This document shows positions 28,180-34,268 of a DNA stretch of 64,000 bases, in pieces (within the stretch, counting starts at the first letter, position 1; every line of letters starts with the position of its first letter). A program made the position numbers and the translations under genes. This DNA is from Escherichia coli (GTDB lineage Bacteria; Pseudomonadota; Gammaproteobacteria; Enterobacterales; Enterobacteriaceae), in the NCBI RefSeq assembly GCF_013315695.1, contig NZ_CP054353.1. One strand, given 5' to 3'. The notes beneath the pieces were generated by a model. The model was not told the origin of the DNA. It did not search any database and saw only the letters and a program-made list of their open reading frames with translations.

Positions 28180-28487
28180 TCATGCCGGGCGAAACAAACG
28201 CATTTGACCAAACAAGCAGACAAAAAAGGCGATGGGATAAATCACCATTTCATAAGCATTGATAGGTGCGTTTAAAACACCGATAAACAAGAGACCGATA
28301 GTGATTAACGCCAGCAACTGGCAGACGCGGATAAAAAAATCATCCAGTTGCCCGAGTTTTTCTGCGCGAAGATATGCATAATTGCCAAAAGTTGCTGTCA
28401 TTAACACGCCAAGAAAATAGCCTTTTCCACTTAACAATGGGCATGAGATCCATAGCCCAACCAGATAAACCAGCGCCCCGACAACAA
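28180..28487 (-). pseudogene. yiaB: yiaB, 5'-truncated by the adjacent IS1
   Basis: Reading frame (..VVGALVYLVGLWISCPLLSGKGYFLGV...) runs straight into the IS1 terminal inverted repeat at 28488; the native N-terminus and start codon are absent. Confidence 0.8.
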
Positions 28488-28502
28488 GGTAATGACTCCA
28501 AC

Positions 28503-29006
28503 TTATTGATAGTGTTTTATGTTCAGATAATGCCCGATGACTTTGTCATGCAGCTCCACCGATTTTGAGAACGACAGCGACTTCCGTCCCAGCCGTGCCA
28601 GGTGCTGCCTCAGATTCAGGTTATGCCGCTCAATTCGCTGCGTATATCGCTTGCTGATTACGTGCAGCTTTCCCTTCAGGCGGGATTCATACAGCGGCCA
28701 GCCATCCGTCATCCATATCACCACGTCAAAGGGTGACAGCAGGCTCATAAGACGCCCCAGCGTCGCCATAGTGCGTTCACCGAATACGTGCGCAACAACC
28801 GTCTTCCGGAGCCTGTCATACGCGTAAAACAGCCAGCGCTGGCGCGATTTAGCCCCGACATAGCCCCACTGTTCGTCCATTTCCGCGCAGACGATGACGT
28901 CACTGCCCGGCTGTATGCGCGAGGTTACCGACTGCGGCCTGAGTTTTTTAAGTGACGTAAAATCGTGTTGAGGCCAACGCCCATAATGCGGGCTGTTGCC
29001 CGGCAT
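28503..29006 (-). CDS. insB: IS1 InsB
   Basis: 167 aa InsB; overlaps insA as expected for the InsAB' frameshift arrangement. Confidence 0.95.
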
Positions 29007-29200
29007 CCAACGCCATTCATGGCCATATCAATGATTTTCTGGTGCGTACCGGGTTGAGAAGCGGTGTAAGTGAACTGCAGTTGCCATGTTTTACGGCAGT
29101 GAGAGCAGAGATAGCGCTGATGTCCGGCGGTGCTTTTGCCGTTACGCACCACCCCGTCAGTAGCTGAACAGGAGGGACAGCTGATAGAAACAGAAGCCAC
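28925..29200 (-). CDS. insA: IS1 InsA
   Basis: 91 aa, [43 protein letters not shown]... Confidence 0.95.
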
Positions 29201-29255
29201 TGGAGCACCTCAAAAACACCATCATACACTAAATCAGTAAGTTGGCAGCATCACC

Positions 29256-31267: not shown

Positions 31268-31852
31268 TATATTGATGGCAAACAGGTAGATATTCGTAAC
31301 TGTCAGCAAGCCATCGCCCAGGGGATTGCGATGGTACCCGAAGACAGAAAGCGCGACGGCATCGTTCCGGTAATGGCGGTTGGTAAAAATATTACCCTCG
31401 CCGCACTCAATAAATTTACCGGCGGTATTAGCCAGCTTGATGACGCGGCAGAGCAAAAATGTATTCTGGAATCAATCCAGCAACTCAAAGTTAAAACGTC
31501 GTCCCCCGACCTTGCTATTGGACGTTTGAGCGGCGGCAATCAGCAAAAAGCGATCCTCGCTCGCTGTCTGTTACTCAACCCGCGCATTCTCATTCTTGAT
31601 GAACCTACCAGGGGTATCGATATTGGCGCGAAATACGAGATCTACAAATTAATTAACCAACTCGTCCAGCAGGGTATTGCCGTTATTGTCATCTCTTCCG
31701 AATTACCTGAAGTGCTCGGCCTTAGCGATCGTGTACTGGTGATGCATGAAGGGAAACTAAAAGCCAACCTGATAAATCATAACCTGACTCAGGAGCAGGT
31801 GATGGAAGCCGCATTGAGGAGCGAACATCATGTCGAAAAGCAATCCGTCTGA
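31268..31852 (+). pseudogene. xylG: xylG 3' fragment (second ABC domain C-terminal part)
   Basis: Reads [31 protein letters not shown]...LSGGNQQK...EHHVEKQSV; continues the frame broken at 29822. Confidence 0.85.
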
Positions 31853-33011
31853 AGTGAAATTAGCCGTACCGACATCCGGTGGCTTTTCCGGGCTGAAATC
31901 ACTGAATTTGCAGGTCTTCGTGATGATTGCAGCTATCATCGCAATCATGCTGTTCTTTACCTGGACCACCGATGGTGCCTACTTAAGCGCCCGTAACGTC
32001 TCCAACCTGTTACGCCAAACCGCGATTACCGGCATCCTCGCGGTAGGAATGGTGTTCGTCATAATTTCTGCTGAAATCGACCTTTCCGTCGGCTCAATGA
32101 TGGGGCTGTTAGGTGGCGTCGCGGCGATTTGTGACGTCTGGCTAGGCTGGCCTTTGCCACTTACCATCATTGTGACTTTGGTTCTGGGACTGCTTCTCGG
32201 TGCCTGGAACGGATGGTGGGTCGCGTACCGCAAAGTCCCTTCATTTATTGTCACCCTCGCGGGCATGTTGGCATTTCGCGGCATACTCATTGGCATCACC
32301 AACGGCACGACTGTTTCCCCCACCAGCGCCGCGATGTCACAAATCGGGCAAAGCTATCTACCCGCCAGCACCGGCTTCATCATTGGCGCGCTTGGCTTAA
32401 TGGCTTTTGTTGGCTGGCAATGGCGCGGAAGAATGCGCCGTCAGGCTTTGGGTTTGCAGTCTCCGGCCTCTACCGCAGTTGTCGGTCGCCAGGCATTAAC
32501 GGCGATTATCGTCTTAGGCGCAATCTGGCTGTTGAACGATTACCGTGGCGTTCCCACTCCTGTTCTGCTGCTGACGTTGCTGTTACTCGGCGGAATGTTT
32601 ATGGCAACGCGGACGGCATTTGGACGACGCATTTATGCCATCGGCGGCAATCTGGAAGCAGCACGTCTCTCCGGGATTAACGTTGAACGCACCAAACTTG
32701 CCGTATTCGCTATTAACGGATTAATGGTAGCCATCGCCGGATTAATCCTCAGTTCTCGACTTGGCGCTGGTTCACCTTCTGCGGGGAATATCGCCGAGCT
32801 GGACGCAATTGCAGCATGCGTGATTGGCGGCACCAGTCTGGCAGGCGGCGTCGGGAGCGTGGCCGGAGCGGTAATGGGGGCATTCATCATGGCTTCACTG
32901 GATAACGGCATGAGTATGATGGATGTACCGACCTTCTGGCAGTATATCGTTAAAGGTGCGATTCTGTTGCTGGCAGTATGGATGGACTCCGCAACCAAAC
33001 GCCGTTCTTGA
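31830..33011 (+). CDS. xylH: Xylose ABC transporter permease XylH
   Basis: 393-aa polytopic permease overlapping the xylG stop; apparently intact but orphaned. Confidence 0.9.
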
Positions 33012-33088
33012 TTTTGATAAAAATTTTCTCAAAGCCGGTAACGTATTACCGGTTTTGAGTTTTTGCATGATTCAGCAGGAAAAGAACC

Positions 33089-34268
33089 ATGTTTACTAAA
33101 CGTCACCGCATCACATTACTGTTCAATGCCAATAAAGCCTATGACCGGCAGGTAGTAGAAGGCGTAGGGGGAATATTTACAGGCGTCACAATCGGAATGG
33201 GATATTTTCATTGAAGAAGATTTCCGCGCCCGCATTGATAAAATCAAGGACTGGTTAGGAGATGGCGTCATTGCCGACTTCGACAACAAACAAATCGAGC
33301 AAGCGCTAGCTGATGTCGACGTCCCCATTGTTGGGGTTGGTGGCTCGTATCACCTTGCCGAAAGTTACCCACCCGTTCATTACATTGCCACCGATAACTA
33401 TGCGCTGGTTGAAAGCGCGTTTTTGCATTTAAAAGAGAAAGGCGTTAACCGCTTTGCTTTTTATGGTCTTCCGGAATCAAGCGGTAAACGTTGGGCCACT
33501 GAACGCGAATATGCATTTCGTCAGCTTGTCGCCGAAGAAAAGTATCGCGGAGTGGTTTATCAGGGATTAGAAACCGCGCCAGAGAACTGGCAACACGCGC
33601 AAAATCGGCTGGCAGACTGGCTACAAACGCTGCCACCGCAAACCGGGATTATTGCCGTTACTGACGCCCGGGCGCGGCATATTCTGCAAGTATGTGAACA
33701 TCTACACATTCCCGTACCGGAAAAATTATGCGTGATTGGCATCGATAACGAAGAACTGACCCGCTATCTGTCGCGTGTCGCCCTTTCTTCGGTCGCTCAG
33801 GGCGCGCGGCAAATGGGCTATCAGGCGGCAAAACTGTTGCATCGATTATTAGATAAAGAAGAAATGCCGCTACAGCGGATTTTGGTCCCACCAGTTCGCG
33901 TCATTGAACGGCGCTCAACAGATTACCGCTCGCTGACCGATCCCGCCGTTATTCAGGCCATGCATTACATTCGTAATCACGCCTGTAAAGGGATTAAAGT
34001 GGATCAGGTACTGGATGCGGTGGGCATATCACGCTCCAATCTTGAGAAGCGTTTTAAAGAAGAGGTGGGTGAAACCATCCATGCCATGATTCATGCCGAG
34101 AAGCTGGAGAAAGCGCGCAGTCTGCTGATTTCAACCACCTTGTCGATCAATGAGATATCGCAAATGTGCGGTTATCCATCGCTGCAATATTTCTACTCTG
34201 TTTTTAAAAAAGCATATGACACGACGCCAAAAGAGTATCGCGATGTAAATAGCGAGGTCATGTTGTAG
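33089..34268 (+). pseudogene. xylR: xylR (AraC-family xylose operon activator) with +1 frameshift in a G-run at 33167-33171
   Basis: ATG at 33089 reads MFTKRHRITLLFNANKAYDRQVVEGVG then a stop after 42 codons; the rest of XylR (ORF 33423..34268 plus upstream codons) is in the +1 frame. Confidence 0.75.

Follow-up and report, generated by a model that had tools for sequence, protein, structure and literature searches.

The D-xylose genes in the analysed stretch of Escherichia coli DNA (64 kb, hereafter the window) have been dismantled in at least five steps, namely two IS insertions, two deletions adjoining the IS1 and a frameshift in xylR. The decay itself is of an ordinary kind, but sister genomes that are nearly identical reveal the order of the steps. 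These genomes keep intermediate stages, which is uncommon, with the transporter lost first and the catabolic genes and the regulator afterwards. We are highly confident that the locus was taken apart stepwise in a natural, IS1-rich, human-associated E. coli clone. The initial annotation had counted three independent lesions; the independence held, as IS1 and ISEc45 are common to the clone-mates while only the window has the large deletion and the frameshift, but the number rose to at least five. No description of this xyl locus or of the ISEc45 target was found in a literature search.

The whole 64 kb of the window is collinear and almost identical with E. coli MSB1_4I and AF3. When a converted ldr repeat unit is set aside, a 4,721-bp gap, three SNPs and one indel are the only differences from MSB1_4I. 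The 12 clustered mismatches at 695-930 were ruled out as point mutations, the ldr repeat unit being 100% identical to the neighbouring unit. Positions 25000-28487 correspond to 2001-5488 of the MSB1_4I locus (L001) with 100% identity, and the xyl parts left in the window show 97.2-98.2% identity to K-12 and 100% to MSB1_4I, in the reference gene order. This order, yiaA-yiaB-xylB-xylA / xylF-xylG-xylH-xylR-bax-malS, identifies the region as the E. coli xylAB-xylFGHR locus, and every element of the initial annotation was located where it had been placed. The lesions are structural and were read against reference genomes, so a test against chance expectation does not apply. For xylR, the references were MSB1_4I, AF3, K-12, 15A and FDAARGOS_1249.

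Clone-mates with the junction of IS1 to xylG nt 391 and with both ISEc45 junctions comprise independently finished genomes (Australia, UK) and further assemblies. The relatives of the window, whose genomes measure ~5.27 Mb, are clinical or commensal isolates from humans; the clone-mates are labelled E. coli and came from a rectal swab and a blood culture. The relatives have at least 40 pieces of IS1, against a median of ~10 places per genome, and other genes near xyl are also broken: bcsE and bcsR by IS1, bisC by a frameshift. The many IS1 copies and the nearby broken genes agree with the earlier guess of a host-restricted, Shigella-like or laboratory lineage, but the relatives, being human clinical and commensal isolates, are neither Shigella nor laboratory derivatives.

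Two insertions, two deletions and a frameshift

The remnant of yiaB (28180-28487, minus strand) runs from codon 12 to the stop codon, its first 34 nt being deleted together with the promoter region; in MSB1_4I, yiaB is annotated at L001 5181-5522. Next to it lies a complete, IS1A-like IS1 of 768 bp (28488-29255, minus strand), recognised by its end sequences and by matches to NCBIfam NF033558. Its ends are GGTAATGAC at 28488 and GGTGATGCT at 29255, both terminal inverted repeats (GGTGATGCTGCCAACTTACTGAT / GGTAATGACTCCAACTTATTGAT) are present, and the length is the ~768 bp expected of IS1. In this element, insA and insB encode the transposase via a programmed frameshift. Both frames are open in the window, insA at 29200-28925 (91 aa) and insB at 29006-28503 (167 aa), with NF033558 E-values of 7.5e-26 and 1.8e-42, respectively, and RefSeq annotates an identical copy as IS1A with the programmed frameshift. 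The window copy is 99.7% identical to IS1 of a K-12 record, and it does not differ at all from the copy that MSB1_4I and AF3 have at this xylG junction.

A simple IS1 insertion leaves an 8-9-bp target-site duplication. The left flank of the window copy, CGACAACAA, differs from the right flank, AGTTTATCC, so this IS1 sits in the locus without a target duplication of 8-9 bp, as the initial annotation had observed; such flanks are expected after an adjacent deletion. The element connects codon 12 (nt 35) of yiaB to nt 391 of xylG, which agrees with its described place between truncated yiaB and the interior of xylG, and the deletion adjoins the 28488 end. None of the 5,426 complete E. coli genomes has the junction of yiaB with IS1. 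In AF3, a sibling IS1 in yiaB is flanked by a normal 9-bp duplication (AAACAAGCA), which shows that IS1 transposes in the clone and that the duplication at xylG was lost secondarily.

Absent from the window are xylB, xylA, xylF and nt 1-390 of xylG, and no homologue of xylA or xylF was found anywhere within the 64 kb. The losses listed before (5' yiaB, xylB, xylA, xylF and 5' xylG) are thus real, but the missing "5' third" of xylG is a quarter (390 of 1,542 nt). This IS1, with an identical xylG junction, is also present in MSB1_4I and AF3, yet both keep yiaB through xylG nt 235, so the window differs from them by a clean 4,721-bp loss from the exact IS1 end. The right junction together with the 4,721 bp is present in MSB1_4I, AF3, L037 and L042, which supports the earlier proposal of an IS1-associated deletion. 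Even in the sister genomes, no target duplication flanks the IS1 and 155 bp of xylG (nt 236-390) are gone, a precedent for deletion next to this IS1 copy. The sisters carry both IS insertions and retain xylB, xylA, xylF and xylR; therefore, the 4,721-bp deletion and the xylR frameshift are later events, limited to the window. The same IS1 copy is tied to two successive losses of flanking DNA.

Of the 5,426 complete E. coli genomes, 5,410 have a single copy of xylBA and 16 have none; in no genome was it found twice or on a plasmid. Since xylBA is single-copy and never duplicated, the prediction of a xylose-negative phenotype, drawn from the sequence, is a reasonable inference. A xylose-negative E. 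coli, as predicted, would show a rare trait, and such an isolate could be misread in biochemical identification.

What is left of xylG forms a middle fragment (29256-29822, plus strand; nt 391-957 of 1,542) and a 3' fragment (31268-31852, plus strand; nt 958-1542), both delimited by BLAST against the uninterrupted K-12 gene. They are split, as had been annotated, by an IS110-family element, ISEc45, at 29823-31267. The xylH gene (31830-33011, plus strand) is intact, in accordance with the annotation: the ORF list gives a frame of 393 codons, the DNA is identical to that of MSB1_4I, and XylH of MSB1_4I has the same accession as that of K-12 (WP_000045978.1). It lies downstream of two insertion sequences, without its operon promoter.

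The xylR pseudogene (33089-34268, plus strand) encodes 41 residues, followed by a stop at 33212-33214, while the reference XylR has 392 aa. The cause is the +1 frameshift already recognised in the initial annotation: a run of five G at 33167-33171 (plus strand, codon 27/28), which has four G in all five references, shifts the frame past codon 27 and brings in a stop at codon 42. The extra G is the sole indel in 64 kb between the window and either MSB1_4I or AF3. A synonymous A>G change in codon 110 (GCA>GCG) at 33419 (plus strand) is derived and found in the window only, all five references having A. An exact look-up of the 281-aa C-terminal xylR ORF gave matches in many unrelated xylR null alleles. 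XylR D66N was discarded as a clone-specific decay mutation, as the N66 allele is present in unrelated lineages with an intact locus.

The structures of the lesions, their junctions and their shared or private distribution are direct observations, and from them the following course may be proposed. Two steps, common to at least four or five clone-mates, would be the older ones, in either order: ISEc45 would have entered xylG between nt 957 and 958, and IS1 would have entered the same gene with loss of the adjacent 155 bp. These steps would have destroyed the high-affinity XylFGH transporter only. More recently, the same IS1 would have made a second deletion at its GGTAATGAC end, the 4,721 bp removed comprising xylG nt 1-235, xylF, the divergent xyl promoters, xylA, xylB and the first 34 nt of yiaB. 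Recent, too, would be the gain of a G in the G4 run of xylR, with its early stop, and the synonymous change. Decay of xylR and xylH was presumably neutral once nothing useful was left for them to serve.

Alternative readings of the deletion and the frameshift

The most likely route to the 4,721-bp deletion would be intramolecular transposition of the IS1 end into yiaB, which would leave IS1 complete and make no target duplication. A real deletion could also have come about in another way: a second IS1 would have inserted at yiaB nt 34, and homologous recombination of the two copies, in direct orientation, would have removed the DNA between them. The end product, one IS1 without matching flanks, would be identical and indistinguishable from that of intramolecular transposition. 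IS1 was found within ~50-160 bp of the junction point in six genomes of other lineages (in the two examined, in the yiaB-xylB spacer and in the same orientation), and AF3 has itself acquired an IS1 in yiaB. However, no intermediate with IS1 at yiaB nt 34 occurs among the 5,426 genomes, and the extra IS1 of AF3 lies at the other end of yiaB in the opposite orientation, so recombination there would invert the segment rather than delete it. Furthermore, adjacent deletion is a classical and frequent activity of IS1, reportedly described by Reif and Saedler in 1975. We consider recombination somewhat unlikely and prefer intramolecular transposition.

The loss might also have been adaptive, mutations that silence or alter the xyl regulon being positively selected once the transporter was broken. 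Comparison of the window, MSB1_4I and AF3 gave eight point differences, six of them in xyl genes, and these genes account for 11% of the window-equivalent region (binomial P = 4e-5, or 3e-4 when the frameshift that gave rise to the finding is left out); of the five substitutions, four are non-synonymous (xylB A129T, xylA A284T, xylG R474H and xylR residue 66). On the other hand, the numbers are small and the test was post hoc, four of the six xyl differences lie on the AF3 branch alone, four further clone-mates added no xyl changes, and XylR N66 also occurs in unrelated strains with an intact locus. Positive selection is an unlikely explanation, and neutral decay of xylR and xylH the more probable one.

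As to the xylR frameshift, a homopolymer sequencing error would mean that the gene is intact in the organism. The identical 41-residue product was found only in assemblies with nearly every gene fragmented, two of which, when examined, had four or five indels inside xylR alone, and G4>G5 at the exact position is an obvious error in such indel-riddled long-read assemblies. In the window, however, the extra G stands as the only indel against two finished genomes, and a second private change, the synonymous one at A110, lies 250 nt away in xylR. Natural xylR nulls are also common, including nonsense codons 21 and 55, IS4-family and IS3-family insertions and a replaced 5' end. A sequencing error is thus improbable, and we regard the frameshift as probably genuine.

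It is very improbable that two direct IS1 copies in yiaB and xylG were collapsed during assembly and the 4.7-kb segment from xylB to 5' xylG dropped: the left junction does lie exactly at the end of a repeat and is present in no other genome, IS1 copies are numerous in the clone and AF3 demonstrates that new insertions in yiaB occur, but elsewhere the window has the quality of a finished sequence (comparison with two finished genomes gave one indel and three SNPs over 64 kb), the same IS1 has a verified adjacent 155-bp deletion in long-read finished genomes, and a collapse of this kind normally breaks the contig rather than joining it seamlessly.

ISEc45 and its target in xylG

ISEc45 (1,445 bp, minus strand) was delimited by its junctions relative to K-12 and identified by NF033542 and by the RefSeq annotation of an identical element. 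Its transposase gene (31207-30074) encodes 377 aa and scored 279.9 bits (cut-off 140) against NF033542, 'IS110 family RNA-guided transposase', as fits a DEDD (RuvC-like) transposase with a C-terminal Transposase_20 domain; Pfam domains PF01548 and PF02371 are recorded for the identical product. Perfect 10-bp subterminal inverted repeats (TATGACCTTT / AAAGGTCATA) lie at 29825-29834 and 31253-31262, with terminal extensions of 5 and 2 nt as measured against the empty site. The left junction is shifted by 1 nt in one metagenome copy.

The element sits between xylG nt 957 and 958 without duplicated bases, and O111:H21 15A and FDAARGOS_1249 have it at exactly this nucleotide, likewise oriented, the latter genome with a distinct ISEc45 variant. 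The flanks in these two are ~2% different, the differences starting 31-156 bp from the element, and on this ground homologous import of xylG::ISEc45 was rejected as the origin of the shared site. Insertion at this point and in this orientation thus recurs in at least three unrelated backgrounds, and ~25 other copies have related flanks, in keeping with the site specificity of the IS110 family. Other copies lie in IS66-family tnpC at ...GGAAAGAAAAACT|TTTATG, ...GGGAAGAAAAATT|TATGTG and similar sites; the xylG site (nt 944-963) reads GGGAAGGAAAAATT|TATATT. An exact scan for the ISEc45 end found nothing in species-representative genomes and 19 loci in metagenomes. The ISEc45 insertion is sequence-specific and recurrent, not a random decay hit, and unrelated strains have it at the same xylG nucleotide probably owing to the likeness of that site to its usual target, the IS66-family transposase motif.

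Going further, xylG nt 944-963 could be a natural secondary target, the primary one being the G-[KR]-[KR]-x-[YW]-[LM]-F motif of IS66-family tnpC, with active ISEc45 repeatedly knocking out the high-affinity xylose transporter and occasionally macB; we regard this proposal as evenly balanced. If true, it would mean natural off-target insertion into host genes by a guide-RNA transposon, and ISEc45 may have been the first hit in this clone, relaxing selection on the rest of the xyl regulon. The xylG insertions are natural data on the mismatches tolerated and bear on the proposed use of such elements in programmable genome editing, which makes this side finding more useful than the decay case.

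Downstream of the transposase gene, ISEc45 has a non-coding region of 251 nt (30073-29823). Structure prediction places AAAAGAAUU and CAUAUA opposite each other in one internal loop at 29985-30038 (minus strand), a candidate seekRNA-like target loop whose minimum-free-energy fold has z = -2.7. CAUAUA is the complement of the consensus right flank TATATG, AAAAGAAUU matches one native left flank at 9 of 9 positions, and AAAAGAATT is identical to the 9 nt directly beside the insertion point of IS682-type targets. The FDAARGOS-type ISEc45 has CACGUA in place of CAUAUA; one of its six copies has the right flank TACGTG, the others lying in the targets of variant 1. A scan of 28000-34500 against Rfam gave no match at E <= 1, so the region fits no curated RNA family. 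The loop may be regarded as a candidate guide of ISEc45.

Comparison with known systems

Deletions promoted by IS1 next to itself are reportedly classical in gal and other systems. As in those cases, the IS1 of the window is complete and in place with one flank unchanged, the other flank is now DNA from several kb away without an 8-9-bp duplication, and nested deletions start repeatedly from a single copy (155 bp, then 4,721 bp). The window differs in that it comes from a natural isolate, not a laboratory-selected one, and the product does not tell transposition from IS1-IS1 recombination.

Cooper et al. are said to have described in 2001 IS150-mediated deletions of the rbs operon in the E. 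coli long-term evolution experiment, where parallel rbs loss across 12 populations reportedly reflected both a high rate and a benefit. Here, too, a resident IS beside a sugar-utilisation operon removed catabolic genes by adjacent deletion, but the IS and the operon are others and the large deletion is found in one genome only. With Shigella, enteroinvasive E. coli and IS-expanded lineages the window shares the many IS1 copies, several hits in one catabolic pathway and the broken bcsE, bcsR and bisC; unlike in Shigella-type decay, the clone-mates have ~5.27-Mb genomes and are labelled E. coli, their sources being a rectal swab and a blood culture.

In members of the IS1111 group, the subterminal inverted repeats measure 11-13 bp and the terminal extensions 7 nt on the left and 3 nt on the right; IS1111/IS110 transposases have 330-350 aa and their guide is a seekRNA, and ISEc21 targets IS3-family transposase genes (PMC11187229). 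ISEc45 resembles the IS1111/IS110 elements in its DEDD transposase, the lack of target duplication, the fixed orientation and nucleotide, the subterminal inverted repeats and the long non-coding region 3' of the transposase gene, and it resembles ISEc21 in that its usual target lies inside the transposase gene of another IS. In contrast to IS1111 members, its extensions are 5/2 rather than 7/3 nt, and its transposase, at 377 aa, exceeds the 330-350 aa of IS1111/IS110. Its guide RNA, unlike those of the seekRNA and bridge RNA systems, is a prediction from sequence, and it differs further from IS1111/IS110 in having the housekeeping genes xylG and macB as putative secondary targets.

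Lesions of the xyl locus and identity of the clone

In the window, a yiaB remnant lacking its first 34 nt (28180-28487) is joined to xylG nt 391 by a complete IS1 of 768 bp with open insA and insB frames (28488-29255). The remaining xylG, nt 391-957 (29256-29822) and nt 958-1542 (31268-31852), is split by the 1,445-bp IS110-family element ISEc45 (29823-31267), and is followed by an intact xylH (31830-33011) and by xylR (33089-34268), in which GGGGG replaces the GGGG of all references and brings a stop at codon 42. The initial annotation had described the IS1 between truncated yiaB and the xylG interior, the split of xylG, the intact xylH, and the +1 frameshift in xylR correctly. 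The IS1 flanks, CGACAACAA and AGTTTATCC, differ and therefore do not form a target duplication, again as claimed. Likewise in line with the claimed loss of xylA and xylF, no homologue of either was found elsewhere in the 64-kb window, and an XylB search of it matched only lyxK, weakly. The missing part of xylG, however, had been given as the 5′ third, while the actual loss is 25% of the gene.

When E. coli genomes were queried with 11 kb around the lesions, the top match was MSB1_4I, a rectal swab isolate from Australia, which aligned in two pieces at 100% identity. Another finished genome, AF3 (blood culture, UK), was as close. By local BLAST, the whole window is collinear with MSB1_4I (99.95% identity for 1-28487 and 99.99% for 28488-64000), which alone of the two contains 4,721 bp between window positions 28487 and 28488. 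Twelve mismatches to both genomes cluster at 695-930, inside the ldr toxin repeat array, and reflect gene conversion or assembly choice in the tandem array, since the unit at 600-1000 is 100% identical to the neighbouring unit at 117-517. Elsewhere, three SNPs and one indel separate the window from MSB1_4I. The window belongs to a natural E. coli clone that is human-associated and rich in IS1; the clone is neither Shigella nor a laboratory strain, the two resemblances initially proposed.

Other genes of the clone are also affected. bisC (biotin sulfoxide reductase; window approximately 14786-17114, minus strand) carries an annotated frameshift in MSB1_4I and AF3, and the window has no differences from MSB1_4I there, so it carries the same sequence. 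Just beyond the window start, IS1 truncates bcsE and a bcsR-like gene in the clone-mates (MSB1_4I record 219496-220324; AF3 locus L031, 11107-13269), and the AF3 bcsA has an internal stop; the cellulose synthesis genes are therefore decaying in the clone-mates, too. An IS150 shared with the clone-mates adjoins hokA, between glyS and hokA (21424-22793, minus strand), and IS150 is also found beside glyS in two unrelated genomes (L033 and L034).

Order of events and mechanism of the deletion

In both MSB1_4I and AF3, the same ISEc45 is present and the same IS1 abuts xylG nt 391 on its right-hand side, but yiaB, xylB, xylA, xylF, xylG nt 1-235, and a full-length xylR are retained, as they are in assemblies GCA_900448625.1 and GCA_000460675.1. 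The IS1 of these clone-mates is already without a duplication, and 155 bp of xylG (nt 236-390) have been lost. Not one of 5,426 complete E. coli genomes has the yiaB-IS1 junction of the window. By these distributions, the ISEc45 insertion and the IS1 insertion with its 155-bp loss, in either order, came first and are clone-wide. Confined to the window lineage are a 4,721-bp deletion, which extends from that end of the IS1 into yiaB, and the additional G in xylR plus a synonymous A>G at 33419. Each of the three independent lesions initially proposed is present, but the count was too low, as the decay took at least five events. The early events cost only the XylFGH transporter, and the isomerase and the kinase went with the later deletion.

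The structure is what an IS1-adjacent deletion classically leaves: a complete IS1 stays in place with one of its junctions as before, its other end now adjoins distal DNA, and there is no duplication. An additional IS1 in AF3, in the yiaB 3′ end (locus L007, 2054-2751), is flanked by a normal 9-bp duplication, AAACAAGCA, which shows that IS1 is active in the clone and that the absence of a duplication at xylG is secondary. Private IS1 insertions near the locus in clone-mates point to recent IS1 activity around it. Another such copy lies between yiaK and yiaL (clone-mate locus L037, 18607-19304). The deletion could have arisen by intramolecular transposition of the resident IS1 or by its recombination with a transient second IS1. 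Other lineages do carry an IS1 in the same orientation in the yiaB-xylB spacer. No intermediate with IS1 at yiaB nt 34 was found among the 5,426 genomes. Alternatively, though improbably, the yiaB-IS1 junction, unique to the window and sitting at a repeat, may be an assembly collapse across two IS1 copies. Finally, the xylR change may be a sequencing error, the identical G4>G5 occurring as an error in indel-riddled long-read assemblies, but here it is the sole indel in 64 kb.

Null alleles of xylR are common in unrelated E. coli with otherwise intact xylAB and xylFGH (comparison loci L051-L055), and include nonsense codons at positions 21 and 55, IS4- and IS3-family insertions, and replacement of the 5′ end. 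The index of the protein collection lists the 281-aa C-terminal xylR ORF in 422 blocks.

A hidden second xylBA copy is unlikely in the source genome, because 5,410 of 5,426 complete E. coli genomes have a single xylB-xylA, located on the chromosome, and neither a second nor a plasmid copy was found in any of the 5,426. XylA and XylB are established as the sole route of D-xylose catabolism in E. coli. From the gene content we strongly infer a xylose-negative phenotype.

Of the eight point differences that distinguish the window, MSB1_4I, and AF3, six are in xyl genes, which account for 11% of the region (binomial P = 4 × 10−5; 3 × 10−4 when the frameshift that first drew attention is left out), and four of the five xyl substitutions change an amino acid. 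The AF3 branch carries four of the six (xylB A129T, xylA A284T, xylG R474H, and xylR residue 66, of which the XylR N66 allele is also found in unrelated strains), and four more clone-mates add none. The excess is unexplained and is not taken as evidence for selection.

Target choice of ISEc45

ISEc45 targets were compared using window 29823-31267 and loci L005, L006, L008-L030, and L057-L061. The element is present in 582 of the 5,426 complete genomes; in four of these it interrupts xylG, each time at the nt 957/958 position and with an identical orientation. Two belong to the window's clone and the others are O111:H21 strain 15A and FDAARGOS_1249, whose flanks are about 2% divergent from the window, the nearest differences lying 31-156 bp from the element. 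The ISEc45 copy of 15A differs by only 3 nt, and that of FDAARGOS_1249 is a distinct variant (~98% identity). Independent insertions in 15A, FDAARGOS_1249, and the window's clone are the simplest reading. A metagenome contig (L020) has a further xylG::ISEc45, without IS1. In L016, L020, L035, and L036 (two metagenome contigs, one ENA assembly, and one NCBI assembly) ISEc45 has an IS66 tnpC flank on one side and xylG on the other, which points either to rearrangement between ISEc45 copies or to chimeric assembly at the repeat.

Nearly all other copies reside in IS66-family tnpC genes, where they occupy a conserved purine-rich motif, e.g., TCTCGGAAAGAAAAACT/TTTATGTTC, TCTCGGGAAAAAGAATT/TACATGTTC, and TCTCGGGAAGAAAAATT/TATGTGTTC, where the slash marks the insertion point. 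The xylG site, ATGGGAAGGAAAAATT/TATATTGAT, has 11 contiguous nt in common with one of these flanks, and one copy lies in macB at CGGAAAGAAGGATT/TACTTT (strain TW14425). Judged by their similar flanks, xylG, hit independently at least three times, and macB are probably secondary chromosomal targets. A degenerate target motif, widened to include xylG and so partly circular, matched the 18.5-kb K-12 locus once, at xylG, and the 64-kb window nowhere. The insertion in xylG is targeted.

ISEc45 encodes an IS110-family DEDD transposase and has 10-bp subterminal inverted repeats; downstream of its transposase gene lies a 251-nt non-coding region, which had no match in Rfam. The predicted fold of this region (z = -2.7) opposes two segments across one internal loop: AAAAGAAUU, the same 9 nt that abut the insertion point in IS682-type targets, and CAUAUA, which complements the consensus right flank TATATG. 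These form a candidate guide loop. The identical non-coding region occurs across all target types, and in a covariation test the targets of a variant with altered loop bases overlapped those of the other variant. Siddiquee et al. tied such a transposase, subterminal repeats, and downstream non-coding region to IS1111-type elements guided by a seekRNA (PMC11187229). xylG may be a recurrent off-target of an RNA-guided insertion sequence. The locus represents real IS-mediated pseudogenisation, accurately described, and its parts all come from well-known classes, namely IS1-adjacent deletion, targeted IS110-family insertion, and homopolymer frameshift.
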